The notes under the pieces: generated by a model
What the model was told of the DNA's origin: nothing
Databases searched by the model: none
Seen by the model: only the letters and a program-made list of their open reading frames with translations
Made by a program: the position numbers and the translations under genes
Origin: a virus
Direction: 5' to 3' (one strand)
DNA: 64,000 bases
Virus record (IMG/VR): IMGVR_UViG_3300037461_000428
Coordinates: 1-64,000 of that record
Shown: in pieces, positions 3,901-34,337 of the stretch
Layout: each line of letters starts with the position of its first letter
Numbering within the stretch: the stretch's first letter is position 1

Positions 3901-4158
3901 ATGTCAACATGTCAATCGTGTGGTGGAATTATCGGTCGAGATTGTTTTAATCCTGAAGAGTGTGCTTGGATTACTCAGCAACAGGCCAACCAATGCGAGG
4001 CCGCGCAGTACAACGCGGAAGAGGCACAGCACAGCCTACAACAGCTAAAGGCTGAAATTGCCACTCTTGTCGATAAACTTGAGGCTATTTCGGCGGAGTA
4101 TTTATATCACCATAATTATGTAATTATTAATAAGCTGCGGCAACTATCAGCCGTTTAG
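3901..4158 (+). CDS. small cassette protein (Cys-rich N-terminus, coiled-coil-like)
   Basis: ATG after AAGAAAGGAATAACA. It ends ...LRQLSAV like the paralog at 12184-12528. The track ORF starts at 3853. Confidence 0.6.
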   Translation: MSTCQSCGGIIGRDCFNPEECAWITQQQANQCEAAQYNAEEAQHSLQQLKAEIATLVDKLEAISAEYLYHHNYVIINKLRQLSAV

Positions 4159-4168
4159 CAAACGTTGG
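4038..4168 (+). repeat. attC-like imperfect hairpin (E-element)
   Basis: 5' arm ACAAC-AGC-TAAAG-GCTG. 3' arm CAGCC-GTTTAGC-AAAC-GTTGG. Long loop that contains the ORF end. Confidence 0.6.
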
Positions 4169-4200
4169 TTGCAATGTTTGCACACAAGAAAGGTTAATAT

Positions 4201-4434
4201 ATGGCGGCATTTAACGAGTGGTGGGAAGAGGCGCGTGAAGCATTAGCAGGATTTACCGACAAGGGAGTCGCTCATTTTGCGTGGGATGCCGCCATTAAGA
4301 GCTTGGAAGGTGTGCAAACACAGACAACCAACTGCCAAAGTGCGCCATGTCCTGTCTGCTCAACAGCATTACGGCTTGATGCAAATTTTTGTATGCAATG
4401 CGGCAGACGAGTACAGGACGAGGCGCACGTTTAG
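4201..4434 (+). CDS. small cassette protein, zinc-ribbon-like
   Basis: 77-aa ORF with RBS AGAAAGG. CPVC...CMQC pairs. Confidence 0.65.
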   Translation: MAAFNEWWEEAREALAGFTDKGVAHFAWDAAIKSLEGVQTQTTNCQSAPCPVCSTALRLDANFCMQCGRRVQDEAHV

Positions 4435-4447
4435 CAAACGTTGGTGG
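4324..4447 (+). repeat. attC-like imperfect hairpin (E-element)
   Basis: ACAACCAAC-TGCC-AAAG-TGCGCC ... GGCGCAC-GTTTAGCAAAC-GTTGGTGG. Distal stem GTGCGCC/GGCGCAC. Confidence 0.75.
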
Positions 4448-4482
4448 CAATTACGCCGCCGACAATTTATAGGAGCGCGATA

Positions 4483-4722
4483 ATGAGCACAGACTGGAGT
4501 GCTGCTAAGTATCGAAGAGAAGCCAAGCGGGAACCTGCGCGTCTTAAATTTTGGTTGCAGTATCACGATGACATCGACAGGGCAAGTAGAGATGTTTGCG
4601 ATAACCCGCCTGGCTTTGACGAATACTGGAGGCAGATGTTTCCTAACGCAAAAAGATATCGCGCTCAGCAGATTATTGAGCGGCGGCGCAACAGCCACCA
4701 ACACGCAAAGGGAATGAAATAA
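4483..4722 (+). CDS. small basic cassette protein
   Basis: ATG after TATAGGAGCGCGATA. The track ORF starts further upstream at 4441. Confidence 0.6.
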   Translation: MSTDWSAAKYRREAKREPARLKFWLQYHDDIDRASRDVCDNPPGFDEYWRQMFPNAKRYRAQQIIERRRNSHQHAKGMK

Positions 4723-4854
4723 TGCTTTACACTATTGTAATTTTATCGGTCGTCTGTGCCGTTTTACTCGGCATAGTAATATGGGGCATTTTCTTTTTAT
4801 CGAAGTTTGGTAATTGGAGATAGCGCATTACTTCACCCTTTTGCGGAACGTTGT
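4698..4854 (+). repeat. attC-like imperfect hairpin (E-element) with a mini-ORF in the loop
   Basis: CCAAC-ACGC-AAAGGG ... CCCTTTT-GCG-GAAC-GTTGT. The middle box is CGC/GCG here but TGC/GCA in other copies, which is a compensatory change. Confidence 0.7.
4722..4823 (+). CDS. small hydrophobic peptide, 33 aa
   Basis: The ATG overlaps the upstream TAA. Translation MLYTIVILSVVCAVLLGIVIWGIFFLSKFGNWR. Lies inside the loop of hairpin 4698-4854. Confidence 0.45.
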   Translation: MLYTIVILSVVCAVLLGIVIWGIFFLSKFGNWR

Positions 4855-4886
4855 ACGCAATAATTTGCTTAAGAAAGGTTTGATAT

Positions 4887-5105
4887 ATGGCCGCAAAAAG
4901 AAGCATCACTTGTATTAAACGAGATGTATGTATCTACCACATTGGACATAAATTTCCTGCCTGTAGTGGTTGCGGCCATTACATTAAGGAAACGCAAATT
5001 ACAGCGCACAACTGCCAAAGTACGCCGTGTTGTTCAGAGTGTGGTAGCACTTGTGTTTTAGTAATGTGTAATACTTGTGGTCATCGACATTGTTATTTAA
5101 AATAG
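4887..5105 (+). CDS. small Cys-rich cassette protein
   Basis: 72-aa ORF with RBS AAGAAAGG. Multiple CxxC pairs. Confidence 0.65.
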   Translation: MAAKRSITCIKRDVCIYHIGHKFPACSGCGHYIKETQITAHNCQSTPCCSECGSTCVLVMCNTCGHRHCYLK

Positions 5106-5131
5106 CACGGCGCACGTTTAGCAACCGTTGT
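5004..5131 (+). repeat. attC-like imperfect hairpin (E-element)
   Basis: GCGCACAAC-TGCC-AAAG-TACGCCGTG ... CACGGCGCAC-GTTTAGCAAC-CGTTGT. Confidence 0.75.
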
Positions 5132-5308
5132 AAGAAATAAATTTTGCTCTTTTAAATTATAAAGGCGCGGCGAACATTGCACGATCTAATTAATCGTGCG
5201 GTCAAATGCTGGTTAATTGCACAGGATATTGCCAGAGGTGTGATCGTGAACTGTGTACGAAGATCACCCCGCGCCTAATTTATTGTAGCAAAATTTACAT
5301 CTTACAAC
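5127..5308 (+). repeat. non-coding cassette closed by a long terminal stem (R-type)
   Basis: GTTGTAAGAAATAAATTTTGCT pairs with AGCAAAATTTACATCTTACAAC (20 of 22 positions). Inner stem AAAGGCGCGG/CCGCGCCT. No ORF of 60 aa or more. Confidence 0.7.
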
Positions 5309-5362
5309 AGCTAAAGGAATGCAACGCCAAAATTGGCGTAGCATCCGTTTAGCAAACGTTGG
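5304..5362 (+). repeat. compact attC-like hairpin (E-element)
   Basis: ACAAC-AGC-TAAAG-GAATGC [ACGCC..GGCGT] GCATCC-GTTTAGCAAAC-GTTGG. No coding content. Confidence 0.75.
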
Positions 5363-5418
5363 TTGCAATAAACCACCATGAATATTATAGTTCGGCGCAC
5401 AATAAAGGAGGTTGCCGC

Positions 5419-5634
5419 ATGAAAATAAAACAGATTACCGATCAGCATCGCAGAGATTTTTCAGCTATTTATATTTGCGAACATTGTGGTGTCGAAGAAA
5501 AAGGTAGTGGATATGATGATGATAATTTTCACCGCAATGTTATTCCTAATAAAGTTTGCAAATCATGCGGCAAAAAAGCACCGGAAGATTATTGTCCTAT
5601 CGGCACAAAATATCCTGCATACGCAGTTGTATAA
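5419..5634 (+). CDS. small zinc-ribbon cassette protein
   Basis: ATG after AAAGGAGG. CEHC...CKSC pairs. The gene is bracketed by the inverted repeat TTCGGCGCACAA (5391) / TTGTATAATGCGCCGAA (5627). Confidence 0.65.
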   Translation: MKIKQITDQHRRDFSAIYICEHCGVEEKGSGYDDDNFHRNVIPNKVCKSCGKKAPEDYCPIGTKYPAYAVV

Positions 5635-5670
5635 TGCGCCGAATTAAAATTAAGGATTGGTGGTTTACAT

Positions 5671-5724
5671 CAACCAACACGCAAGTCACGCCATAGAAGC
5701 GGCGTGAACTTGCGGACACGTTGT
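5671..5724 (+). repeat. compact attC-like hairpin (E-element)
   Basis: CAACCAAC-ACGC-AAGTCACGCC loop GGCGTGAACTT-GCG-GACAC-GTTGT. Confidence 0.75.
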
Positions 5725-5772
5725 AGTCAATTCCGGTTTTGAAAACCTTTTATTATAGGAGCGCGCAAGAAA

Positions 5773-6045
5773 ATGAAATTATTAAACGATATCAACATTG
5801 TTGTGTCTAACAATTTTATTGAACTTATGGCATTAAAAGCTGAGTCGGATGGTATGCTTTCTGAAAATTATCAACGGATGGCATTATCACAAAGTATGGC
5901 GTATGCAGAAAAAGATTTTCTTTACGTAGCGGATAGAATGCGCGCTCTGAAATATGATGAAGCAAAACCGGAACAGCCTACAACAACGCAAGGCCAAAAC
6001 GCCCAAAGCGGCGCATCGGCCTTGCGTAAACGTTGTAAGAAATAA
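5773..6045 (+). CDS. small cassette protein
   Basis: 90-aa ORF, ATG after TATAGGAGCGCGCAAGAAA. Translation runs through the whole hairpin 5980-6036. Confidence 0.6.
   Translation: MKLLNDINIVVSNNFIELMALKAESDGMLSENYQRMALSQSMAYAEKDFLYVADRMRALKYDEAKPEQPTTTQGQNAQSGASALRKRCKK
5980..6036 (+). repeat. compact attC-like hairpin (E-element)
   Basis: ACAAC-AACGCAAGGCC loop GGCCTTGCGT-AAAC-GTTGT. Confidence 0.75.
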
Positions 6046-6171
6046 GACTTGCTTTTATGATTATAAGCGGCAAAGTTTCTTTGGGTGTAGATTTTAAAAA
6101 CCTCCGCACGGATGCTACTGAACGTGTGGTTTGCAACTTACATTATGGAGGCAAGTCTTACATCTTACAAC
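6032..6171 (+). repeat. non-coding cassette closed by a long terminal stem (R-type)
   Basis: GTTGTAAGAAATAAGACTTGC pairs with GCAAGTCTTACATCTTACAAC. The variable hexamer covaries relative to 5127 and 10472. Confidence 0.7.
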
Positions 6172-6265
6172 AAATAAAACCTGCAATGCCGCCTGTCCAC
6201 CTATTAGGACTGGATCGCTTTAAATGCGGCGTGCGGCGGCAAAGCAGGTGTTTATCGGACGTTGT
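6167..6265 (+). repeat. attC-like imperfect hairpin (E-element)
   Basis: ACAAC-AAATAAAA-CCTGCAATGCCGCC ... GGCGGCAAAGCAGG-TGTTTATCGGAC-GTTGT. Confidence 0.65.
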
Positions 6266-6307
6266 ACGCAATGCCACTTTAAATTAGATGCGGCGGGAGG
6301 TGTTAAA

Positions 6308-6580
6308 ATGGTTTTCTCATGTCCAAAGTGTCACGGTGCAATATATCCGTCAGATAATGTTGACTATTACGATTGCGAAGATTGTCATCACTTGTATCAT
6401 ATCGAATATTTAAAAGGTTTTGTTGCAGGTAAAATGTCCGCCGCAAAAGCGATGGAACAAAGTGGCACAGCGCACAACACGCAAAGTGACGGCATGTTTA
6501 ACTGTCCACCATTATGCCCTGTCTGTGGTCGATGTCATGTGCCATCAATAGAGTGTTTGCCATTACTGAGTATCAGTTAA
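6308..6580 (+). CDS. small Cys-rich cassette protein (two zinc-ribbon-like units)
   Basis: ATG after GGGAGGTGTTAAA. CPKC..CEDC and CPVCGRC motifs. The track ORF 6224 begins upstream, inside the preceding hairpin. Confidence 0.6.
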   Translation: MVFSCPKCHGAIYPSDNVDYYDCEDCHHLYHIEYLKGFVAGKMSAAKAMEQSGTAHNTQSDGMFNCPPLCPVCGRCHVPSIECLPLLSIS

Positions 6581-6608
6581 ACACGACCGCACGTTTGCGG
6601 AACGTTGT
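6470..6608 (+). repeat. attC-like imperfect hairpin (E-element)
   Basis: GCGCACAAC-ACGC-AAAG-TGACGG ... CCGCAC-GTTT-GCG-GAAC-GTTGT. Confidence 0.7.
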
Positions 6609-6634
6609 TTGCAATTGCAATTGAGGAAAAATAT

Positions 6635-6829
6635 ATGATAGTCGAGCTTGCACAAGAAGCGGCAGAGTTAATCAAAGTGTATCGTGATAAAAATATTGTA
6701 ATTGATAACTGGCAGTATAGGGTGCAAGCTCTATTAATTGCAGTAGCTCAATTGCAACAGACAAACAACTCGCAAAGGAATGCAATGGCGGTCGAGCCGA
6801 GTACGGTAAACGAGCAATCGTTTCATTGA
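6635..6829 (+). CDS. small cassette protein
   Basis: ATG after GAGGAAAAATAT. 64 aa. Confidence 0.55.
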   Translation: MIVELAQEAAELIKVYRDKNIVIDNWQYRVQALLIAVAQLQQTNNSQRNAMAVEPSTVNEQSFH

Positions 6830-6894
6830 GCAAGCTCAGTGGCACACGTAAGATCGTGTGGTGTCCGCCACTGCATCCATTTGCGGGACGTTGT
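6765..6894 (+). repeat. attC-like imperfect hairpin (E-element)
   Basis: ACAAC-TCGC-AAAG-GAATGCAATGGCGG ... CCGCCACTGCATCC-ATTT-GCG-GGAC-GTTGT. Confidence 0.75.
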
Positions 6895-6928
6895 ACGCAA
6901 TGCCACTTTAAATTGAAAGGAGTTTGCC

Positions 6929-7138
6929 ATGTTACAAGAGGTAATTGATTTTCTTGACCATCAATTTTCAATGAAAGACGCAACAATTTTATACCGTGAC
7001 CAATGGCAAACTCTGAAATCTGCGGTACTTGCGGCACAGCCAACCAACTGCCAAAGTGCGCCATGTTCTTTTTGCGGCAGAGCGGTTACGGTTCAATTTC
7101 CGATATGTTTTGAGTGCCGTGGTAAAATTCATGATTAA
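6929..7138 (+). CDS. small zinc-ribbon cassette protein
   Basis: 69-aa ORF, ATG after GAAAGGAGTTTGCC. CSFC...CFEC pairs. Confidence 0.65.
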   Translation: MLQEVIDFLDHQFSMKDATILYRDQWQTLKSAVLAAQPTNCQSAPCSFCGRAVTVQFPICFECRGKIHD

Positions 7139-7164
7139 CAAGGCGCACGTTTAGCGACCGTTGT
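7041..7164 (+). repeat. attC-like imperfect hairpin (E-element)
   Basis: CAACCAAC-TGCC-AAAG-TGCGCC ... GGCGCAC-GTTTAGCGAC-CGTTGT. Paralogous to 4324 and 5004. Confidence 0.75.
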
Positions 7165-7199
7165 ACGCAATTGTAAATTTTAAACAGGAGTATTATAAT

Positions 7200-7430
7200 A
7201 TGCTCGCTCAACCATGCCCTTTTTGTGGTAGCAGTATTAGAATCTTTGACAATGTAGGAGGCCAGTGCGTTACTCATAAACACGATACCTGCTGTTTGAG
7301 TCACATGGTATTTAGATTGCGGTCATGGAATGAGCGAGCAAACGCTGTGGAAGAAAATTTACAACAGCGCACAACACAGCAAGGCACACAAGCCGCAAAA
7401 GAAAAAGACGCGGCCAGCGGCCATTGCTGA
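7200..7430 (+). CDS. small cassette protein (CPFC motif)
   Basis: ATG after CAGGAGTATTATAAT. In this gene the conserved GCGCACAAC arm is read as R-T-T, not as A-H-N. Confidence 0.6.
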   Translation: MLAQPCPFCGSSIRIFDNVGGQCVTHKHDTCCLSHMVFRLRSWNERANAVEENLQQRTTQQGTQAAKEKDAASGHC

Positions 7431-7438
7431 AACGTTGT
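7367..7438 (+). repeat. attC-like imperfect hairpin (E-element)
   Basis: GCGCACAAC-A-CAGCAAGGC ... GGCCATTGCTG-AAAC-GTTGT. Confidence 0.65.
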
Positions 7439-7471
7439 ACGCAACCGGCAATGAAACTATAGGAGCGCAAT

Positions 7472-7597
7472 ATGTCGCAGATCGAAAAGAATACGCAGTC
7501 TATTGAGGCACTTGCAGAAGAAATACGGTTGTTACGTGAACAAGTTATTGCGCTCAAAGAGCAATTGGAATCATTGCCAGCAGCGCACAACAAATAA
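7472..7597 (+). CDS. small coiled-coil-like cassette protein, 41 aa
   Basis: ATG after TATAGGAGCGCAAT. Translation MSQIEKNTQSIEALAEEIRLLREQVIALKEQLESLPAAHNK. Below the track cutoff. Confidence 0.5.
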   Translation: MSQIEKNTQSIEALAEEIRLLREQVIALKEQLESLPAAHNK

Positions 7598-7725
7598 AGG
7601 TTAAAATTGTGGCCGATACCAAAAAACGCAGTTCAAGCTTCTCTGATCTCAAAAGAAGTATGGCGGTTTTACATAAAGTTTCCGCTGCAAAGCGGCCACA
7701 ACTTCAACCATTTATCGCACGTTGT
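7583..7725 (+). repeat. attC-like imperfect hairpin (E-element)
   Basis: GCGCACAAC-AAA-TAAAGGTTAAAATTGTGGCC ... GGCCACAACTTCAACCATTTA-TCGCAC-GTTGT. Confidence 0.7.
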
Positions 7726-7810
7726 ACGCAATGCTGCCCTTAAAACATTATTAGAGTTTGCGGCGGCCAAGAACGCGGCATCGTGCCGCGAAGAGAAAGG
7801 CAAAAACAAA

Positions 7811-8833
7811 ATGCAAATCACAAGAAACCTTATCGTACCAACTGGCAATATACTCGTGGTATCTGGAGCAAAAGGCAATTTGGAAATGCTTTCTCTTGCT
7901 GATTATGGACAGAGCGTAAATCTAAACCAACACAAAGCAGTAGAAAACGGATTGCCGCTTTTGCCACTAACTGAAAAGTGGGTGGTTACAGTTTCAACAC
8001 AATACGGTTGTTCAATGTGCTGTGAATTTTGCGATGTGCCGAAAGTTGGAGCGGGAAAAAACGCTACATTTCACGATCTTTGTGGTCAAATTCTTACGGC
8101 GTTGACATTACCAAATGTTCCACAGCAGACCAAAAGATTAAATATTCATTTTGCGCGAATGGGGGAACCATCTTGGAACCCTGCTGTTCTTGATTGCGGG
8201 AAATGGATAATGGAACATCTTGGCGATACCTACAATCCGCATCCTGTTGTTTCTACAATGATGCCGCGTAAAAACGAATGGTTGAAAACATTTATTCATA
8301 ATTGGATGAGAATGAAAAACAGGGTTTATCGTGGGAATGCAGGCTTGCAGCTTTCAATAAATTCAACAGATGAAGAAGAAAGAAAAAGAATGTTTTCTGG
8401 CAATGCTTGTACGCTTGAGGAAATATCAGAAATCATGCGTGGCATTATCCCTGTCGGAAGAAAAATAACTCTCAATTTTGCAGTAGCGGGATACACTGTA
8501 GATTGTGATAAACTTGCAAGGCTTTTTTCTCCTGAATTGTTTATTGTAAAGCTAACACCGATGCACAAAACTGACAAAGCAATCCAGAACGGAATAAAAA
8601 CGGAAGGTGATTATACAACACCAGAACCGTATTTAGAACTTGAAACAAGATTACAAAAAGCTGGATTTGATACTCTTGTTTTTATAGCAAGCGATGATGA
8701 AGATAAAGGAAGAATAACTTGCGGTAATGCAATTCTTTCTGGAACATTACCAGAATGCAAATATCAAGAGACGCATCCCTGCGCCGAGAGGCCGCCGCAA
8801 GACACTGTAGAAACGGGCAGCACATGCGTATAA
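7811..8833 (+). CDS. radical SAM enzyme, RlmN/Cfr-like
   Basis: VSTQYGCSMCCEFCDV contains CxxxCxxC. MGEPSWNP, LQLSINSTDEEERKRMF and the C-terminal GRITCGNAILSG parallel RlmN/Cfr blocks. The start was moved to ATG 7811 because the track start 7607 runs through a hairpin. Confidence 0.8.
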   Translation: MQITRNLIVPTGNILVVSGAKGNLEMLSLADYGQSVNLNQHKAVENGLPLLPLTEKWVVTVSTQYGCSMCCEFCDVPKVGAGKNATFHDLCGQILTALTLPNVPQQTKRLNIHFARMGEPSWNPAVLDCGKWIMEHLGDTYNPHPVVSTMMPRKNEWLKTFIHNWMRMKNRVYRGNAGLQLSINSTDEEERKRMFSGNACTLEEISEIMRGIIPVGRKITLNFAVAGYTVDCDKLARLFSPELFIVKLTPMHKTDKAIQNGIKTEGDYTTPEPYLELETRLQKAGFDTLVFIASDDEDKGRITCGNAILSGTLPECKYQETHPCAERPPQDTVETGSTCV

Positions 8834-8912
8834 CAGCCGCAGTATGCAAAGCGGATTACACTATGGAGTTTATTAATTAATAGCCGCTCAGCACACATGC
8901 GGCATACGTTGT
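8832..8912 (+). repeat. probable E-element (arms less regular)
   Basis: AAC-AGCCGCAGTATGC-AAAGCGG ... CCGCT..CATGCGGCATAC-GTTGT. The pairing register is ambiguous. Confidence 0.35.
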
Positions 8913-8943
8913 AAGAAATAAATTTTGCTCTTTGTAATTGTAG
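8908..8943 (+). repeat. orphan 5' arm of an R-type cassette
   Basis: GTTGTAAGAAATAAATTTTGCTCTTTGTAATTGTAG is near-identical to 5127-5162, but no matching ...TTACATCTTACAAC partner follows. Confidence 0.5.
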
Positions 8944-9029
8944 TTTGCATACAGCGGGTTCCGGTAGACCAACCTACGGCACTCCAAAAAAGTAACATTA
9001 GTAACGGTCGCTAAGCGGAAACAGCTACC

Positions 9030-9156
9030 GACAGCCAAAAGGATGAAATTTGCCCTAATTGTGGCTGTGTTGCTATCAGTATTGGTAATAACAATTTTCT
9101 GTGCGGTTGTGAGCCTGATCGTTAGGCAAATTATCAGCCATTTAGCGATACGTTGT
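9030..9156 (+). repeat. probable E-element with a mini-ORF in the loop
   Basis: GACAGCC-AAAAGG-ATGAAATTTGCC ... GGCAAATTATCAGCC-ATTTAGC-GATAC-GTTGT. The core on the 5' side is degenerate. Confidence 0.45.
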
Positions 9157-9195
9157 GCGCAATTAAAATTTTTCTGGAGTTATAATGGTAACTAA
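9043..9195 (+). CDS. small hydrophobic peptide, 50 aa
   Basis: ATG after CCAAAAGG. Translation MKFALIVAVLLSVLVITIFCAVVSLIVRQ... It overlaps the next gene's start. Confidence 0.4.
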   Translation: MKFALIVAVLLSVLVITIFCAVVSLIVRQIISHLAIRCAQLKFFWSYNGN

Positions 9196-9373
9196 AAAAG
9201 AAATCGGTGATATGGTTTTTCAGATTATTCGTGAAAAATGTGTCAGCGATATGGCGGCATTTCGTGCATCTGAGGACGTTGCTATTTACATTGTGGATAA
9301 AATTTTACCAGCTGCTCTTTCTGCCAATGAAGATATAATCTTTAATAATTGGAAAGATGCAGAAAACAATTAG
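9185..9373 (+). CDS. small protein at the right edge of array A (KDAENN family)
   Basis: 62-aa ORF, ATG after CTGGAGTTATA. Its 3' end and the downstream 20 nt are repeated at 24480-24575. Confidence 0.65.
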   Translation: MVTKKEIGDMVFQIIREKCVSDMAAFRASEDVAIYIVDKILPAALSANEDIIFNNWKDAENN

Positions 9374-9404
9374 ACAATAAACGAATCGCGGAAGAGGAAT
9401 TAAT

Positions 9405-10118
9405 ATGGTTAAAGTAAATACAGACTTTGAAAAACTACAATTAAAAGCAAGAGATGCTCTCTATTTTATAGATAGTCATCCAGCTATTAATGGTAGCTTT
9501 TTTGGTGTACAAACTAGTTTGTGGTTTAGTATCCAAACAGTTTGTAAAAGAGGCCATAGTGAATATTCTATCAAAGACATGACTATTTATTATAGTAAAG
9601 AAAACTATAAAAAATTTAAAAAAGAATTCGATAAAGAAATAGCAGAAGATCAGGATTATTTCAAAAAGTGTCCAACATTAGTAAGTATACAAATGCCTTA
9701 TCAAAAAGTATTTGGAGAACCTTGGATATTTGACCATATAGAATATTGGGGCGAACTTACATTGCATATTTATAAAGGTAAGAAAGCTAAAGAGAAGTTT
9801 AACTTTCTAGACTGGGATAATTGGGAAGGACCGCACGCAGGAGGAAGAACTTACGAAGAAATGATTATTAACCTCGCTAAGAAAATGAAAAAAGAATGTG
9901 GTAATTTTGATTATTATAGTTTTCTGACTCCAGAAGAAATTAAGAATCATAAAGAGGAAGAGGTATTCTTCTGGAAAAAAGTTCCAGATACAAAAGAACA
10001 TAAAAACTATTCTACTATTATACCTAACAAAAAGTATATTAAAGTAAGCGACGCCGAAAAGAATCTTCGATGGCAAGAGTGGATGAAGATTAAGAAGAAT
10101 ATTTCTTATAATAATTAA
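9405..10118 (+). CDS. hypothetical protein
   Basis: 237-aa AT-rich ORF with GGAAGAGGAATTAAT before the ATG. No motif recognised. Confidence 0.7.
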   Translation: MVKVNTDFEKLQLKARDALYFIDSHPAINGSFFGVQTSLWFSIQTVCKRGHSEYSIKDMTIYYSKENYKKFKKEFDKEIAEDQDYFKKCPTLVSIQMPYQKVFGEPWIFDHIEYWGELTLHIYKGKKAKEKFNFLDWDNWEGPHAGGRTYEEMIINLAKKMKKECGNFDYYSFLTPEEIKNHKEEEVFFWKKVPDTKEHKNYSTIIPNKKYIKVSDAEKNLRWQEWMKIKKNISYNN

Positions 10119-10141
10119 CAGGAGAAATAAATGAAAGAATA

Positions 10142-10402
10142 TTGGATATGTATAGTTGTCCAGTAGAAGGAAGTAAATTACCAGAAGGTTCTGATAGTGC
10201 ACCTAGAAACGGCGCACAAACAGGAATGTACAGATTAGGATTAGACGATAAATATGATATATCGTCTGGGTGGGGACTTACCAAAGACCAAGTAAATAGA
10301 ATTTTAAATATTTGGAGAGAGCCCAGTTGTCAAGGTATATTTAAAAATAGACAAGGCGCAATTAAAAGACCAAAACCTAAAGTTGTAAAGAAAAAGAAAT
10401 AA
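10142..10402 (+). CDS. hypothetical protein
   Basis: 86-aa ORF with a basic C-terminus. The RBS is not convincing. Confidence 0.5.
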   Translation: MDMYSCPVEGSKLPEGSDSAPRNGAQTGMYRLGLDDKYDISSGWGLTKDQVNRILNIWREPSCQGIFKNRQGAIKRPKPKVVKKKK

Positions 10403-10428
10403 TGTTATTATTTAACAATTAACTGCAT

Positions 10429-10476
10429 ACAACTATCAAAGATTGCCATTAAAACGGCAACCTTTTGTTTAGTTGT
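10429..10476 (+). repeat. boundary hairpin of cassette array B
   Basis: ACAACTATCAAAGATTGCC attaaaac GGCAACCTTTTGTTTAGTTGT. A copy of 3800-3847. Confidence 0.8.
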
Positions 10477-10644
10477 AAGAAATAAACTTGGCTTTTGTCT
10501 TATAGAAAATGGTGCGAAAAATGCGCTTAATTAGTTGCTTAAAACAGCCCTCGGATTATTCGCTATTATCATGGAACCCGACCAAGCTGCCGGTTCGAGC
10601 GAGCCATTTTTTACATTATGGAAGCCAAGTTTACATCTTACAAC
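10472..10644 (+). repeat. non-coding cassette closed by a long terminal stem (R-type)
   Basis: GTTGTAAGAAATAAACTTGGC pairs with GCCAAGTTTACATCTTACAAC. The interior is unrelated to the other R copies. Confidence 0.7.
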
Positions 10645-10767
10645 AAATGCGTTATGCAATATCCCGCTCCGGCATGGTTGCCATAGCACTACTAGAAATG
10701 GTTCGCAAGGTGTAAACATGGATTCGAGTCCCATGGGCGGGATATAGCATAACACATCAACCGTTGT
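10640..10767 (+). repeat. attC-like hairpin whose loop holds a tRNA-like element
   Basis: ACAAC-AAA-TGC-GTTATGC ... GCATAAC-ACATCAAC-CGTTGT. Confidence 0.65.
10663..10742 (+). ncRNA. tRNA-like element (acceptor plus T-arm, no canonical anticodon arm)
   Basis: Acceptor CCCGCTC/GGGCGGG. T-arm ATGGA-TTCGAGT-CCCAT. GGCA-tggt-TGCC hairpin. The central arm has a 13-nt loop. Confidence 0.4.
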
Positions 10768-10795
10768 ACAAAATTAAAATTTTTCTGGAGGTTAT

Positions 10796-11029
10796 ATGGC
10801 AAAAACTTATCTGTGCCCATATTCTAAAACGGAGAGCATACGATGTAATTTACAAACACCATGTATAGAGTGTAAGGTATTTTTGCCGGACACTATGGAT
10901 AAAATTTTAACTTCGTACAACAAACAAAGTATGCCATTTTGTGCTTTACCGGATCATTGCGATATGCAAAGCGCAGTTTATTTATGTAATTGCGAATCGA
11001 TTTGTAAGCATAAACGGCATACTTTGTAA
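10796..11029 (+). CDS. small Cys-rich cassette protein
   Basis: 77-aa ORF, ATG after CTGGAGGTTAT. Confidence 0.6.
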   Translation: MAKTYLCPYSKTESIRCNLQTPCIECKVFLPDTMDKILTSYNKQSMPFCALPDHCDMQSAVYLCNCESICKHKRHTL

Positions 11030-11037
11030 AACGTTAG
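10914..11037 (+). repeat. attC-like imperfect hairpin (E-element)
   Basis: TCGTACAAC-AAA-CAAAGTATGCC ... GGCATACTTTG-TAAAAC-GTTAG. The distal stem is 11 perfect bp. Confidence 0.7.
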
Positions 11038-11078
11038 ATGCAATGTTCGCCTTAAAACAGTATAGGAGTTTTTCGCGC

Positions 11079-11327
11079 ATGAAACTATCTCGTTGTATTT
11101 GCGGTCGTGAAGCAAAAATATGGGCTGGGCAGTATGGGGATGAATTGCGTACAATTGAGTGTAATTGCGGCATCTCAACGTTGGCATGGTGGAACGGGAA
11201 TAAATGTGCCGCAAATTGGAATACAATTCAGCGCGAAAAAAGAAAAGTTGAAGCGGCGAACACAGCATCTAACAACAGCGTTACGCAAGCCGCAGAAACA
11301 AAAAGCACGGCCAGCGCAACACTGTAA
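11079..11327 (+). CDS. small cassette protein (CICG...CNCG)
   Basis: ATG after TATAGGAGTTTTTCGCGC. The track ORF 10941 begins inside the previous cassette. Confidence 0.6.
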   Translation: MKLSRCICGREAKIWAGQYGDELRTIECNCGISTLAWWNGNKCAANWNTIQREKRKVEAANTASNNSVTQAAETKSTASATL

Positions 11328-11334
11328 ACGTTGT
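11272..11334 (+). repeat. compact attC-like hairpin (E-element)
   Basis: ACAAC-AGCGTTACGC ... GCGCAACACTG-TAAAC-GTTGT (9 of 11 positions pair). Confidence 0.55.
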
Positions 11335-11374
11335 GCGCAATGGGCGCGGAGAGCGTTTTTATAGGAGCTGCCAA

Positions 11375-11560
11375 ATGAAAGTATCTGCTATTGAGCAAGT
11401 AGTGAAATATTATCAGTCAATCGTTGACTCGTTGCCTATTGGTGGTTTTGGCGTGAAGGTGTTACACGATGCTTTGGTGGAATTGGCCGCTCTGAAGGCA
11501 GCGGAGTCCGCGCCCACAGACGCACAACAAACCAATGGCGGCGCAAAGCCTAAATGCTGA
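11375..11560 (+). CDS. small cassette protein
   Basis: ATG after TATAGGAGCTGCCAA. 61 aa. Confidence 0.55.
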   Translation: MKVSAIEQVVKYYQSIVDSLPIGGFGVKVLHDALVELAALKAAESAPTDAQQTNGGAKPKC

Positions 11561-11591
11561 GTATAGCACTTCGCCATTGGTCTGACGTTGT
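11520..11591 (+). repeat. compact attC-like hairpin (E-element)
   Basis: ACGCACAAC-AAA-CCAATGGCG ... CGCCATTGG-TCTGAC-GTTGT. The distal stem is 9 perfect bp. Confidence 0.75.
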
Positions 11592-11623
11592 ACGCAATAT
11601 TTTGCTTAAGAAAGGTTTGATAT

Positions 11624-11851
11624 ATGGCTGCTAATACAGGAATACGATTGTTGCCAAAAAATCTTTCTGATTCTGATCGTGCTTTATGGCTTGCAGGTTA
11701 CGAAGCGGCCATTAACGCTATGGAAGCGCAAAATACAGTGCACAACATCAGCGTTATGCCATGTGTCGGTTGTCTGAACAAAATCACAACTTGTCGGCTT
11801 GGTTATCAGATCGAAGATCAGCCTTGTAACCAGCGCACGGCACAACACTGA
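11624..11851 (+). CDS. small cassette protein
   Basis: 75-aa ORF. Its 5' UTR (TTGCTTAAGAAAGGTTTGATAT) is the same as that of the gene at 4887. Confidence 0.6.
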   Translation: MAANTGIRLLPKNLSDSDRALWLAGYEAAINAMEAQNTVHNISVMPCVGCLNKITTCRLGYQIEDQPCNQRTAQH

Positions 11852-11860
11852 AAACGTTGT
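11738..11860 (+). repeat. attC-like imperfect hairpin (E-element)
   Basis: GTGCACAAC-ATCAG-CGTTATGCC ... GGCACAACA-CTG-AAAAC-GTTGT. Confidence 0.6.
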
Positions 11861-11887
11861 ATACAATATTTAACAATCGAGGTTAAT

Positions 11888-12136
11888 ATGTCAAATTTGA
11901 AACGATATACAGAGAGTTATTGTTGTGGTAAGTATGATGGCATGGAAGAGGATTCTCTCGCTGGCGAATGGGTCAAATTTGACGACATTAAGGAGTTGTT
12001 AAATACCGTGCACAACCGCCAAAGGGATGAAATATTGCATCTTATTATGGATGATTCGTTTGCTATTTCATTTCAGTCGTTTAGTCAGTATCGGTCGGCA
12101 TTGGTTAAAGAGATCGCAAAACTATCAGCCATTTAG
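11888..12136 (+). CDS. small cassette protein
   Basis: 82-aa ORF, ATG after CGAGGTTAAT. It ends ...KLSAI, encoded by the shared AACTATCAGCCATTTAG module. Confidence 0.6.
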   Translation: MSNLKRYTESYCCGKYDGMEEDSLAGEWVKFDDIKELLNTVHNRQRDEILHLIMDDSFAISFQSFSQYRSALVKEIAKLSAI

Positions 12137-12146
12137 CAAACGTTGT
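12008..12146 (+). repeat. E-element arms present but distal stems do not match
   Basis: 5' arm GTGCACAAC-CGCC-AAAG-GGATG. 3' arm CAGCC-ATTTAGCAAAC-GTTGT. This looks like a recombinant or decayed site. Confidence 0.35.
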
Positions 12147-12183
12147 AGTCCATAATTGTGCAACCATATCATAGGAGGTGCGT

Positions 12184-12528
12184 ATGTATATAGGCGGTAA
12201 TGAAATTTCTAAACAGGTGGATTTCTTCGAGCTAGAAGCTAAGAACCGTGTTACAGCTGGTGATTTTGATACGGCGCAATGGTGCATTCAAGCTGCAAAT
12301 GCCGCGTTTCAGGCGTATGTATGTATTTGTAAACGTGAACGCGCCGAAGAAAAACAGCCTACAACAGCTCAAGCATGTCAGCCGGAGGAAGCGGGCCACA
12401 CAAACAGCCAACAACTAAAATCCGAAATTGCCGCTCTTGTAGCGGAATGTAGTGCTAATGCCATCAATAGTGGTAATAATAAGTATCAGTGGTTAATTGA
12501 TAGACTGCGGCAACTATCAGCCGTTTAG
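12184..12528 (+). CDS. small cassette protein, paralog of 3901-4158
   Basis: ATG after ATAGGAGGTGCGT. It shares QQLK.EIA.LV and the terminal LRQLSAV with 3901-4158. Confidence 0.6.
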   Translation: MYIGGNEISKQVDFFELEAKNRVTAGDFDTAQWCIQAANAAFQAYVCICKRERAEEKQPTTAQACQPEEAGHTNSQQLKSEIAALVAECSANAINSGNNKYQWLIDRLRQLSAV

Positions 12529-12539
12529 CGGTACGTTAT
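12408..12539 (+). repeat. probable E-element
   Basis: CCAACAAC-TAAAA-TCCG ... CAGCC-GTTTAGC-GGTAC-GTTAT. A homolog of 4038-4168. Confidence 0.45.
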
Positions 12540-12566
12540 GCAAAAGTTTTAACGCTGGAGATTTAT

Positions 12567-12821
12567 ATGTCAACGCTCGATGATCTTTGGAACGACACTA
12601 TGTACGCATACCAAAATGGTGAGCTGTCGCGGGAACAGGTCGCGTTGAAATTTGCGGAGGCGTTAAAACCTTCGCACAACAAACCTATGCCAAAATTGCC
12701 GACACTGGCGGAATGTCAAACAGAGATACAGTCGCAGATATGGGGTGGCGGCTTTAAGGGAACATCTTCAAATATAACTGAGATTGTTTACAATTTTATA
12801 TGTCGGCAACTGTCGGCATAG
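12567..12821 (+). CDS. small cassette protein
   Basis: 84-aa ORF, ATG after CTGGAGATTTAT. Confidence 0.6.
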   Translation: MSTLDDLWNDTMYAYQNGELSREQVALKFAEALKPSHNKPMPKLPTLAECQTEIQSQIWGGGFKGTSSNITEIVYNFICRQLSA

Positions 12822-12833
12822 GTCGGACATTGT
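12672..12833 (+). repeat. attC-like imperfect hairpin (last element of array B)
   Basis: TCGCACAAC-AAA-CCTATGCC-AAAA-TTGCCGACA ... TGTCGGCAA-C-TGTC-GGCATAGG-TCGGAC-ATTGT. Confidence 0.7.
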
Positions 12834-12876
12834 AAGCAATTTGTCTAAACTTTTAATGCTATACTATAACAATACT

Positions 12877-24635: not shown

Positions 24636-24710
24636 GGTATCTTATCTCAATTGGTTGAGGAAATTGTTTTAGAGACAATTTAGTGTAGGTTCGAATCCTA
24701 TCTGTAGAGG
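24636..24710 (+). pseudogene. tRNA-derived fragment (Leu-UAG-like anticodon arm, T-arm, no acceptor pairing)
   Basis: D-arm TCTC-AATTGGTT-GAGG, ATTGT-TTTAGAG-ACAAT and GTAGG-TTCGAAT-CCTAT are present. The 5' and 3' ends cannot pair. A related D-arm string lies at 23903-23922. Confidence 0.3.
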
Positions 24711-24958
24711 CACTTTTCAATACTCTTTTTATGTGGTGCGATGTGCTAATATAGTTAGGTGTAATAAATGTAAAGCTGAATTTCCGCTAATAAGTATGTG
24801 TTGACACAGCACACGTTTAGTGGCACGTTTTATGTAATACGGGGGAGTGCAAATAGTTATCGACATCGCGATTTAGTTCGGTAGCTTCAACGAGTAATGT
24901 CGTTGCTCTCCCGCGTATAGCATACAATGTCGCCATTTAAGTGTACATATTTTTCATT

Positions 24959-31521: not shown

Positions 31522-31878
31522 ATGAAAATTTTAATATTAGAAGACAGCGGCGAAAGAATTTTTGAATTCAAGAAAAGATTAGGTGCTCACGATGTAACTT
31601 TTACAATGGATACTAAAGAATGTATACATTTATTAGCTACTCAAGATTGGGACTATATTTGTCTCGATCATGATATGGGGACTACTTTTGATAAACCAGG
31701 AGAAGGTACTGGATATGAAGTAGCCAAATGGATATCTGAAAATCCTGAACGTAAACCAAGACATATATTATTACACACAATGAATAATGTCGGGGCGTCA
31801 GCTATGATGTTAGTTCTAGGTAGAGTAGGAATAAGAGCAAGTTATATACCTTGTCTATGGACGAAGATAGAAGTTTAA
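31522..31878 (+). CDS. stand-alone receiver (CheY-fold)-like protein
   Basis: MKILILEDSGERI... and ...YICLDHDMG fit a REC-fold acidic pocket. It resembles the receiver-like domains reported next to RNA-repair genes, which is an inference only. Confidence 0.5.
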   Translation: MKILILEDSGERIFEFKKRLGAHDVTFTMDTKECIHLLATQDWDYICLDHDMGTTFDKPGEGTGYEVAKWISENPERKPRHILLHTMNNVGASAMMLVLGRVGIRASYIPCLWTKIEV

Positions 31879-31883
31879 TACAC

Positions 31884-31960
31884 GGTGACGTTAGCTCAGT
31901 TGAAAGAGCGTTGGGATGTGGCCCCAAAGGTCAAGAGTTTGAATCTCTTACGTCACACCA
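31884..31960 (+). tRNA. tRNA-His(GUG) with encoded G-1 and CCA
   Basis: G-1, then acceptor GTGACGT/ACGTCAC. D stem GCTC/GAGC. Anticodon stem TTGGG/CCCAA with loop ATGTGGC. T-arm AAGAG-TTTGAAT-CTCTT. ACCA end. Confidence 0.85.
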
Positions 31961-31976
31961 TTTTAAGGAGAGAATT

Positions 31977-33119
31977 TTGTCAGAAAGAAAATTAGCTCAT
32001 ATTGAATTAATAGAAAAACTGGAACCAATTCCAAATAGTGACTTTCTTGAAAAGGCTACTATACTTGGTTGGGAATGTGTAGTAAAAAAAGATCAGTTTA
32101 AAGTCGGAGAACGAGTTTGTTATATAGAAACCGATAGTATTGTTCCTACTATACCATTCTTTTTCTTTATGGAACCAAGACGTTACCGCGTGAAAATCAT
32201 ACGGTTACGTAAGCAAATTTCACAAGGCCTCGCCATTTCCTTTAGTGACATAGATAAAATATGTAGTGAATTATATAACAATACAATGGGTATTGTTACC
32301 TCTTCCCTAAATATTGGAGAAGATATATCAAAAACGTTACATATTATTAAACATGATCCTCAAGCTAAAGAGGAATTTCTAATAGAAGATAGTAAAAAAG
32401 CTAATCCTATCCATAAGTATTTATTAAAATACAAATGGTATAGAGCTATTCAGCCAAAGAAACAGGGACGATGGCCGAAGTGGATACAAAAAACAGACGA
32501 AGAAAGAATACAAAATATTCCATCTATTCTTATTCATCATGCTGATACCAAAGTTTATTGGTCAGAAAAATTAGATGGAAAAAGTATATCTATCTCATAT
32601 AAGAAGTTAAAAGTATTTGGTATATTTTCAAATTGGATATTTACTGTGTGCTCTAGAAACATCTGGTTGAAGCGGCCTAGCACACAAGACTATTGGAGAA
32701 TAGTTCGACAATTAGATCTTCAAAATAAATTAAAGAACTATAATAGAGAACTAGTTCTTCAAGGAGAACTTTGTGGACCGAGAATACAAAAGAATAAATA
32801 TAATCTTAAAGATATAGATTTATTTATCTTTACTGTTTATGATATAAAACTTGATACCTATTTAGGAATCGAAGGAATTAGAAAAGTTTGTGAAGACCTT
32901 AATTTAAAAATGGTACCAATACTTGGTACAGGAATATTAAAAGAAAACTTTCCCGATGTTCCAAAATGTGTAGAAAAATCAAAAGGAACTTCAATTCTAG
33001 CTAGTGTAAAAAGAGAAGGAATTGTGGTGCGCCAATATAATAACTCAAAAGGAACTAAAGGGCTTTCTTTTAAAGTAATTTCGCCAGAGTTCTTACTTGG
33101 ACTAAGCGAAGATGAATAA
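31977..33119 (+). CDS. RNA ligase (KxDG nucleotidyltransferase, DRB0094/Rnl-like)
   Basis: WSEKLDGKS is adenylation motif I. The N-terminal AHIELIEKLEPIPNSDFLEKATILGWECVVKK resembles the RNA-ligase N-domain. A TTG start after AAGGAGAGAA is assumed because the track ORF 31851 runs through tRNA-His. Confidence 0.65.
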   Translation: MSERKLAHIELIEKLEPIPNSDFLEKATILGWECVVKKDQFKVGERVCYIETDSIVPTIPFFFFMEPRRYRVKIIRLRKQISQGLAISFSDIDKICSELYNNTMGIVTSSLNIGEDISKTLHIIKHDPQAKEEFLIEDSKKANPIHKYLLKYKWYRAIQPKKQGRWPKWIQKTDEERIQNIPSILIHHADTKVYWSEKLDGKSISISYKKLKVFGIFSNWIFTVCSRNIWLKRPSTQDYWRIVRQLDLQNKLKNYNRELVLQGELCGPRIQKNKYNLKDIDLFIFTVYDIKLDTYLGIEGIRKVCEDLNLKMVPILGTGILKENFPDVPKCVEKSKGTSILASVKREGIVVRQYNNSKGTKGLSFKVISPEFLLGLSEDE

Positions 33120-33190
33120 ATTAGTATATATTTATCTTTATTTTTATATGATAGAATTGATTATTTAGTTAATAATATTTTATAGAATTA

Positions 33191-33311
33191 CCTAGGTGTA
33201 AGGGTTCAATTCCCTAAATTGAAAGTCGCGACTTTTCAATTACATTTGATCCGATTCTATAAACGATAGGATCTAAAATTCATCTGGCAGCGTAAGCTTG
33301 ATGGCACCTAG
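33191..33311 (+). ncRNA. tRNA-like structured RNA upstream of the Y-RNA-like array
   Basis: Closing stem CCTAGGTG/CACCTAG. T-arm-like GGG-TTCAATT-CCC. Hairpins TTGAAAGTCGCGACTTTTCAA and GATCC..GGATC. Confidence 0.35.
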
Positions 33312-33323
33312 ATTTAATTTTTT

Positions 33324-33436
33324 GAGTGGGTGTAGATAACAGTTACTTCACTTGAAAATCTGCCTTAGGCAGACCCGTGTAAGTCAAACTAGCACACGTT
33401 ATAGTCGTGGCATACCTGTTGTCGTTTTTATCACTC
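33324..33436 (+). ncRNA. Y-RNA-like (Yrl) RNA, copy 1
   Basis: 5' GAGTG-GGTGTAG-ATAACA-GTTACTTC. 3' CTGTTGTC-GTTTTTATC-ACTC. The 5' and 3' ends pair. The motif pair is repeated in the copies below. Confidence 0.6.
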
Positions 33437-33548
33437 AAATTTTATTATTGATCTGAAGGAAAATTGGGGTCGCTTTTCCTGTTCATCTCCAATTTAACCG
33501 CCTTCAGAACTAAATGATCCTTAATAATATAAGGATCATGTTTTAAAT

Positions 33549-33653
33549 GGTCGGGTGTAGTAAACGGTTACTTCTACATTTTATGTAATGCAAGTGAAAT
33601 TCAAGGCCTGTTGCACGTATAGTCGTGCGGATCCGTTTACGTTTTTATCGACC
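33549..33653 (+). ncRNA. Y-RNA-like RNA, copy 2
   Basis: GGTCG-GGTGTAG-TAAACG-GTTACTTC ... CCGTTTAC-GTTTTTATC-GACC. The spacer covaries (TAAACGG/CCGTTTA). Confidence 0.6.
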
Positions 33654-33674
33654 TTTATTTTTATTGATATAATT

Positions 33675-33761
33675 AAATTCAAGGGTGTAGTAGAGAGTTA
33701 CTTCTAATCGCATATAGATAGGCCGTAAGGCCATTTCTCTCTACGTTTTAATCTTGAATTT
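33675..33761 (+). ncRNA. Y-RNA-like RNA, copy 3 (short)
   Basis: AAATTCAAG-GGTGTAG-TAGAGA-GTTACTTC ... TCTCTCTAC-GTTTTAATC-TTGAATTT. Confidence 0.55.
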
Positions 33762-33779
33762 AATTAAATTAATAAACAA

Positions 33780-33942
33780 GATCGGGTGTAGATTACAGTT
33801 ACTTCTATCGAACTTACGATCGGTGGTTCGAATCCATCTCTATAAGGAAACTTGTAGATGGCCTAGTGGTAAGGCAAAAGTATGTGAAATTCAGAGCTGA
33901 CACGTTATAGCCGTGACATTCCTGTAGTCGTTTTTATCGATC
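33780..33942 (+). ncRNA. Y-RNA-like RNA, copy 4, with a tRNA-like module (YrlA-type)
   Basis: GATCG-GGTGTAG-ATTACA-GTTACTTC ... CCTGTAGTC-GTTTTTATC-GATC. The interior has GGTGG-TTCGAAT-CCATC and GCCTAGTGGTAAGGC. Confidence 0.6.
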
Positions 33943-33957
33943 TTTAAATAATCCATA

Positions 33958-34075
33958 AGTGGTGTAGACCTACGAAAGTATAGCTGACAAGGCTCTAGAC
34001 ATGGTCGAGGGGTTACCTACCGAAACTAGTAAGGTATGTGGCGGTAATGAAGGGGATTATTTATTATTTTTGCTT
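33958..34075 (+). ncRNA. possible divergent Y-RNA-like copy
   Basis: It has GGTGTAGACCTAC and GGTTACCTAC, but the two are separated by about 45 nt and the GTTTTTATC partner is missing. Confidence 0.25.
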
Positions 34076-34179
34076 TAGTTGACGACGAAACAAGATCCAG
34101 CCAGACACCAGAGCCTCTTAACAATGCTACAAATATTGGTCAACTGGTGTTGAATGTGGACTTACTAAAGCATTATTAA

Positions 34180-34306
34180 TAACGGGTGTAGACAAGAGTT
34201 ACTTCACTGATAATGAAAAGATATGGGTTCGAGTCCCATACCCTTCGTAAGAAGGGACTAGCTCAATGGCTAGAGCGTTAAAATACTCTTATCGTTTTTA
34301 TCGTTA
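34180..34306 (+). ncRNA. Y-RNA-like RNA, copy 5, with a tRNA-like module (YrlA-type)
   Basis: TAACG-GGTGTAG-ACAAGA-GTTACTTC ... ACTCTTATC-GTTTTTATC-GTTA. The interior has ATGGG-TTCGAGT-CCCAT and GCTCAATGGCTAGAGC. Confidence 0.6.
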
Positions 34307-34337
34307 TTATTTTCTCTCACACAAATAGGAGGGTGTT

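Follow-up and report, generated by a model that had tools for sequence, protein, structure and literature searches.

A radical S-adenosylmethionine enzyme related to RlmN and Cfr, carried as a gene cassette in a phage genome, and its possible link to NAD salvage

The first 64,000 nucleotides of the virus record IMGVR_UViG_3300037461_000428 (hereafter the window, 64 kb) belong to a complete phage record of 213,094 bp with direct terminal repeats. Nearly all long open reading frames (ORFs) of the window lie on the + strand, and their products include a DNA ligase, an RNA ligase, helicases, a UvsX-like recombinase and a polymerase. Between 3.8 and 12.9 kb lies an array of short units, one of which contains the gene described here, encoding a radical S-adenosylmethionine (SAM) enzyme of 340 residues. 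The protein is an intact, selected enzyme of a distinct family (PHROG 24834 and its cellular relatives) that forms a sister group of the class A methyl synthases, the RNA-acting enzymes RlmN and Cfr.

The enzyme gene and its cassette

The array stretch (3.8-12.9 kb) has a G+C content of 40.9%, compared with 32.1% elsewhere in the window. Its units are split by a repeated core, ACGTTGTA(C/A)G(C/A)AA, of which 13 copies lie within 4150-12839; every core serves as 3′ arm in an inverted repeat, the 5′ arm being GCGCACAAC. The unit that holds the enzyme gene comprises the following features (positions in the window):

7584-7731, + strand: upstream junction element, containing repeat families D1, D5 and D14
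7719-7731, + strand: left cassette boundary, core ACGTTGTACGCAA, one of the 13 cores, at which homology with contig L002 (below) begins
7775-7798, + strand: leader hairpin GCGGCATCGTGCCGC, then a purine-rich ribosome-binding stretch, 13 nt before the ATG
7811-8833, + strand: radical SAM gene, ATG start, 340 residues, member of PHROG 24834
8771-8833, + strand: non-conserved C-terminal tail (residues 321-340), extending into the downstream junction DNA
8906-8918, + strand: right cassette boundary, core ACGTTGTAAGAAA (repeat family D6), with a matching core 3′ of the gene in L002

The cores at 7719 and 8906 bracket the ORF, in agreement with an earlier note on this DNA, which had described it (at 7721-8912) as the only large gene of the array, set between two junctions; it is the sole ORF of at least 300 residues between 3.8 and 13 kb. 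A longer TTG-started frame from 7607 runs over the upstream junction, and homologues share the methionine start at 7811. The upstream junction element folds at -46.5 kcal/mol (z -2.6) with its two arms base-paired: GCGCACAAC at 7584-7592 on the 5′ side and GTTGTACGC at 7722-7730 on the 3′ side. The ‘tRNA-like elements’ that the same note had placed beside the gene are these folded junction sites of the array; the five tRNA genes of the window all lie between 20 and 34 kb, at least 12 kb away. Downstream of the gene, a long stem formed by 8836-8862 with 8932-8957 spans the junction core (8836-8957; RNA fold, z only -0.9).

Neither a sigma-70-like promoter on the + strand nor a terminator was found within the cassette, and the promoterless 1.19-kb unit would be transcribed by read-through from upstream. 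The enzyme would rely on host factors only, and the gene most likely serves the phage as an accessory gene, in metabolism or counter-defence. The leader hairpin occurs once in the window. The 50-nt leader as a whole (7768-7817; hairpin and purine-rich stretch) also heads a different cassette in L002 (7127-7169, 84% identity) and may be a portable translation-initiation module.

The mobility of the gene is supported by comparison with contig L002, binned with a Chitinivibrionales genome, which encodes a protein 83% identical to the 340-residue enzyme. When L002 is compared with the whole window, DNA similarity is confined to 7719-8769, so that the homology starts exactly at the junction core. 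The L002 gene is flanked by cores at 5918 and 7083, within a run of seven co-directional cores, and the other units of the L002 array are unrelated to those of the window array. The enzyme gene is thus supported as a mobile single-gene cassette, the same unit occurring among differing neighbours, which bears out the description of it as phage-borne and mobile. A DNA-level search of the phage collection returned zero matches. A core on both sides of the enzyme gene was found in none of the other 108 phage-type loci of the family, indicating that most lineages carry it as an ordinary phage gene and that it is a cassette here. A ACGTTGTA core with the GCGAGA prefix seen in L002 lies ~160 nt 5′ of the enzyme gene in L168 (5825-5860), a 242-kb phage with NAMPT adjoining the enzyme gene, and also in L170 and L167 (near 5834); the L168 core may be a leftover cassette boundary.

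Integron cassettes and CALIN arrays (clusters of attC sites lacking integron integrases) share with the present array the promoterless single-gene unit, the folded junctions resembling recombination sites, the GTTG-type core, and the recurrence of a unit in another array with other neighbours. Here, however, the array lies inside a phage genome, and its junction family is peculiar to it. From these features the array, near the left genome end, appears integron-like, and phage arrays of this kind can hold full-size enzymes besides mini-genes.

Against the L002 copy, the proportion of nonsynonymous differences (pN) is 0.092 and that of synonymous differences (pS) is 0.749, the latter saturated; the corresponding ratio of substitution rates (dN/dS) is ~0.02. 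The low pN against a saturated pS indicates strong purifying selection on the enzyme.

Relationship to RlmN and Cfr

RlmN is a dual-specificity C2-methyl synthase acting on A2503 of 23S rRNA and A37 of tRNA (PDB 3RFA, 5HR7, 6FZ6), whilst Cfr is a C8-methyl synthase of 23S rRNA A2503 that confers antibiotic resistance (PDB 9P0P). The N-terminal accessory domain of both enzymes serves RNA recognition. To our knowledge, no class A radical SAM methyl synthase other than these two RNA-acting enzymes has been characterised.

The kinship of the phage protein with these enzymes is established by both sequence and fold. Pfam gives a Radical_SAM match at E 0.15 only, so that Pfam alone would miss the gene. 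In the hidden Markov model search that the earlier note had proposed, the best NCBIfam models are RlmN (E 1.9e-9) and then Cfr (E 1e-6 to 1e-7); the scores, however, are 25-37 bits against cut-offs of 290-633, with partial coverage (mostly residues 50-134). The RlmN model TIGR00048 scores 36.9 bits, far below its curated equivalog threshold of 290, and the Cfr models score 25-29 bits against 468-550. The PDB sequence matches of the protein are RlmN. A full-length match is obtained to PHROG 24834, a phage family of unknown function (E 2e-102, 343.6 bits, residues 1-321 on profile positions 1-334 of 336).

More than 6,641 related proteins are present in the metagenome collection, most of ~320 residues. 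A search of 1.84 billion cluster representatives gave 611 clusters at E <=0.001, far fewer than would be expected had the search reached RlmN proper, and on this ground the family looks distinct. Many relatives are named 23S rRNA (adenine2503-C2)-methyltransferase by the JGI (Joint Genome Institute) pipeline, an automatic label that is probably wrong for the family; the kinship to Cfr, a resistance enzyme, could also be misleading.

With 37 diverse relatives as input, AlphaFold2 gave a model with a mean predicted local distance difference test (pLDDT) score of 88.9, dropping to 48-62 in the C-terminal tail (residues 321-340); most homologues stop near residue 320. In a Foldseek comparison with the PDB, the ten best matches are all RlmN (E 4e-10 to 1e-7), with SuiB and pyruvate formate-lyase (PFL) activase next at 1e-5. 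Structural alignment with VIA-align likewise places RlmN above every other radical SAM family compared (Z 25.6 for 5hr7_A, root-mean-square deviation 2.9 Å over 264 residues, and Z 25.2 for 6fz6_A), followed by Cfr at Z 19.4; the family ranked after these reaches Z 14.8, and SuiB Z 14.0. No match to a SPASM domain was found in Pfam or NCBIfam, and only one conserved cysteine lies beyond the core. The SPASM/twitch maturases of ribosomally synthesised and post-translationally modified peptides (RiPPs), as well as QueE, are excluded as closest relatives by the sequence and fold comparison; the assignment to the RlmN/Cfr side, first made from four sequence blocks, therefore agrees across the profile searches, PDB sequence matches, Foldseek and VIA-align. 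All four blocks are present in the 340-residue protein, and the main mechanistic positions are as follows:

Residues 61-74: block VSTQYGCSMCCEFC
Residues 117-124: block MGEPSWNP
Residues 181-191: block LSINSTDEEER
Residues 302-307: block ITCGNA
7988-7990, + strand: Thr60, which takes the place of the RlmN resolving cysteine C118, from alignment with 14 RlmN sequences
8009-8032, + strand: CxxxCxxC (C67, C71, C74), the [4Fe-4S]-binding motif, matching the RlmN cluster motif and kept in 35 of 37 aligned relatives
8162-8170, + strand: G118-E119-P120, the SAM-binding GEP motif common to RlmN and Cfr, preceded by a family-specific Arg116
8720-8725, + strand: C304-G305 of the C-terminal loop, the counterpart of RlmN C355-G356 (methyl-carrier cysteine), aligned to RlmN AACGQ and at least 90% kept in the family

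For a residue-level comparison, 20 family members were aligned with 14 bona fide RlmN sequences from Clostridia genomes. Identity between RlmN and the phage protein is ~17-21%. The two share the radical SAM core with its β-sheet extension, the SxQxGC-x3-C-x2-C motif and the C-terminal loop with its CG(Q/N) cysteine; the shared residues are S62, Q64, G66, the three cluster cysteines, Q93, GEP-x2-N, S182, R191, R217, P250, G285 and C304-G305. With Cfr, which is further from the protein than RlmN, the class A architecture and the cysteine loop are shared. Apparent intermediates in Clostridia (E 1e-33) proved to be short RlmN/Cfr proteins having C118.

The differences are equally consistent. RlmN C118 is the resolving cysteine and lies seven residues before the first cluster cysteine; the equivalent position is Thr60 in the phage protein and T, I, N, V or A in the family, being Cys in none of 35 members compared with all 14 RlmN sequences. 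Of the two mechanistic cysteines that the earlier note had singled out for checking, the equivalent of C355 is therefore kept (as C304) and that of C118 is not. The N-terminal accessory domain, suspected to be missing from the outset, is indeed absent: residue 1 of the model aligns with residue 80 of E. coli RlmN and residue 66 of Cfr, leaving RlmN residues 1-79 with no counterpart and just 55 residues, all β-strand, before the core. In Cfr, too, the second mechanistic cysteine and the N-terminal domain have no counterpart here, and there is no sign of a resistance function in the phage protein. In the family, the invariant charged residues K56, R116 and K247 occupy positions that are G, G and N in RlmN, and E25 (also charged) and N222 are further family-specific invariants. 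The median isoelectric point is 6.16 for 97 viral members compared with 8.28 for 28 clostridial RlmN proteins.

As the protein departs from RlmN and Cfr in three defining features (the N-terminal domain, C118 and the curated score), we do not file it under either. The retention of the methyl-carrier cysteine with loss of both the resolving cysteine and the RNA-binding domain points to a new resolution chemistry or a new substrate class. The family would then be a third, very large class A branch, of more than 6,600 proteins, mostly viral.

It is very improbable that the gene is an inactive passenger, a decaying cassette without function in the phage. The lack of a promoter of its own and the non-conserved 20-residue tail that enters the junction would fit such decay, as would the loss of the cluster cysteines in the family members P0141 and P0149, but in the phage protein the catalytic motifs are all intact, the structural model is of high confidence, and pN against the 83%-identical L002 copy is 0.09 with pS saturated. 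Decayed copies do exist in the family, since P0141 and P0149 are without the cluster cysteines or without the C-terminal CG motif.

Relatives, fusion partners and neighbouring genes

In a quick maximum-likelihood tree of 71 rows, RlmN stands apart and all viral rows, including the 340-residue protein, fall into a single clade (100% support). This viral clade also contains, in nested positions, the transporter fusions and genes from the chromosomes of gut bacteria. In one Oscillospiraceae genome (that of locus L010) the enzyme gene is present twice, as copies of the phage type separated by 7 kb (G002:C5:132138-132980 and 139015-139947).

Fusions and operons of the relatives are informative about the substrate. 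In one fusion (P0162), an energy-coupling factor (ECF) S component, scoring above the Pfam threshold for QueT, is joined to the enzyme and then to a genuine methylthioadenosine/S-adenosylhomocysteine (MTA/SAH) nucleosidase (224 bits, cut-off 169); in others the enzyme is fused to a TrxR-like flavoprotein or to an isochorismatase-family hydrolase. The last two recur as separate genes in cellular relatives (50 loci from diverse anaerobic bacteria and archaea), where an operon of isochorismatase-family hydrolase, TrxR-like flavoprotein and enzyme is seen: the flavoprotein gene precedes the enzyme gene in 45 of the 50 loci and an isochorismatase-family gene is present in 36. A nucleosidase clearing SAH and 5′-deoxyadenosine fits an enzyme that consumes SAM stoichiometrically, whilst the fused transporter and the hydrolase partner point to a small-molecule substrate.

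The QueT-like domain raises the question of queuosine-precursor salvage, in which the enzyme would be a QueL-like lyase freeing preQ1 from queuine for the host tRNA-guanine transglycosylase (TGT). C. difficile has a cluster of QueK, ECF-S and QueL (PMC11570991), which the fusions with the QueT-like and nucleosidase domains parallel, and QueL is reported to be common in gut species (PMC11130926). The family, in contrast, occurs in only 2 of 300 Clostridia genomes compared with 211 of 300 for QueT; no radical SAM gene stands beside QueT in 30 Clostridia loci (flanks of only 1.5 kb), and the QueT-fused clade has just 9 short relatives, none of them named. A search of the phage genome for TGT, QueC and QueF found none. 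We regard this explanation as quite improbable.

In the viral loci no single neighbour gene is found in more than 13 of 110. In 18 of ~110 phage-type loci a DNA methylase gene (N6/N4 or C5) is found within 6 kb, and homing endonucleases are another recurrent neighbour. The methylase genes, together with the location of the enzyme gene in early or accessory regions, would suit C-methylation of a base, whether in phage DNA or in a nucleotide precursor, as a means of evading restriction. This is improbable, as the enzyme has no DNA-binding domain, its cellular relatives are in metabolic operons or fused to transporters, and DNA methylases are common in such regions anyway.

A CCA-adding enzyme (7 loci), RlaP (5 loci) and RNA ligases are also found near the gene in viral loci, and would fit a nucleic-acid role. 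With the RNA ligase and the five tRNA genes of the same window, with RlmN and Cfr as the closest relatives in sequence and fold, and with the methyl-carrier loop retained, they speak for the RNA methylation that the earlier note had proposed. The enzyme would then carry out adenine C-methylation in tRNA or rRNA as RlmN and Cfr do, recognising RNA through its core or a partner and using another resolving residue, and would tune translation or protect tRNA. We consider this possible but doubtful. The N-terminal domain is missing, C118 is missing family-wide, the phage clade is acidic, and the profile scores fall far under the RlmN/Cfr cut-offs; moreover, fusions to a transporter, a nucleosidase and a hydrolase, and the NAD (nicotinamide adenine dinucleotide) operons described below, are hard to square with an RNA substrate.

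Position among NAD-salvage genes and a possible substrate

In four species of gut alphaproteobacteria (L016, L017, L018 and L223), the enzyme gene is part of a tight operon, pncB-pncA-enzyme-nadE-DUF5662-nrtR, with gaps of 5-17 bp (L016:1030-6123); nadE is missing in L018. The products are nicotinate phosphoribosyltransferase, a PncA-like nicotinamidase (its sole NCBIfam hit), the enzyme, NAD synthase, DUF5662 and NrtR. NrtR is a repressor that responds to ADP-ribose. These species are close relatives and were counted as one lineage; their sister species have the enzyme gene elsewhere. The uncharacterised DUF5662 always follows in the gut operon.

Several viral loci show a similar association:

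L202 (166-kb viral contig): bifunctional NMNAT/Nudix 4956-5987, enzyme 5935-6972, NAMPT 7053-8477; genes of the NAD reconstitution pathway NARP2 on both sides
L168 and L170: NAMPT, a Prs-like gene, a small ORF, enzyme
L196: enzyme, a small ORF, NAMPT
L164: a type II phosphoribosyltransferase-like gene, enzyme, a PncA-like gene
L157: NAMPT at 5 kb from the enzyme gene

Overall, a NAMPT-family gene is present in 9 of 49 whole viral contigs with the enzyme, and in 5 of these 9 it lies within 6 kb of the enzyme gene. For comparison, the combined frequency of NARP1 and NARP2 among sequenced phages is 5.4% (bioRxiv 10.1101/2024.02.11.579819). The present loci resemble NARP1, NARP2 and NARP3 in that several phages have relatives of the enzyme flanked by, or next to, genes of the NAMPT/Namat, NMNAT-Nudix and Prs-like types; they differ in that the described pathways, in the literature searched, name no radical SAM enzyme. 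The same search found no report of a phage RlmN-like enzyme or of a radical SAM enzyme in NAD salvage.

Taken with the fusions and with the residues that are kept and lost, these neighbourhoods lead us to favour, tentatively and at somewhat less than even confidence, a sister family of the class A methyl synthases whose substrate is a small aromatic molecule, with a possible role in NAD salvage or reconstitution. The enzyme would still employ a cysteine-borne one-carbon unit and a 5′-deoxyadenosyl radical; its target would be an aromatic ring in a small compound (a base, nucleoside or nucleotide of the pyridine or purine type) tied to NAD or niacin salvage rather than 23S rRNA or tRNA, and the adduct would be resolved by a base other than cysteine.

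Several observations weigh against this small-molecule reading, and in particular against its NAD component. The NAD link is one of gene neighbourhood, seen in ~6 independent lineages among ~110 phage-type loci, and most viral loci are without an NAD gene; the clustering of accessory genes in phage genomes has causes besides joint function. In the present phage genome, no NARP gene, no NAMPT/NAPRTase gene and no isochorismatase gene was found. The transporter domain matches QueT, itself not known as a niacin transporter, and in the deep cellular clade the isochorismatases show no specific likeness to PncA. Loss of C118 does not necessarily alter the substrate, and the DNA methylases, CCA-adding enzyme, RlaP and RNA ligases near the gene in other viral loci, described above, would agree with a nucleic-acid role.

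A more specific form of the small-molecule reading, which is speculative and which we consider unlikely, is that the enzyme is an unrecognised enzyme of NAD metabolism, recruited by phages beside NARP-type pathways, that applies RlmN-like cysteine-borne radical chemistry to a pyridine or adenine nucleotide or base and helps the phage withstand NAD-depleting defence; in the present genome it would be shuffled as an integron-like cassette. Such an enzyme might regenerate usable nicotinamide from a derivative, or might alter NAD or an NAD-derived immune signal. The recurrent placement among NAD-salvage and NAD-reconstitution genes provides a concrete lead for work on phages and NAD depletion.

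Elsewhere in the window, an RNA ligase (phrog_968) and a 516-residue ‘RNA-binding protein’ (phrog_850) lie among the tRNA genes (31851-35888). The tRNA-His predicted by ARAGORN at 31885-31960 overlaps the TTG-started ligase frame, indicating that the true ligase start is probably later. This tRNA-His and the ARAGORN tRNA-Leu at 24958 are below the Rfam gathering score, and a partial tRNA match in Rfam (30.1 bits), uncalled by ARAGORN, lies at 24643-24701.

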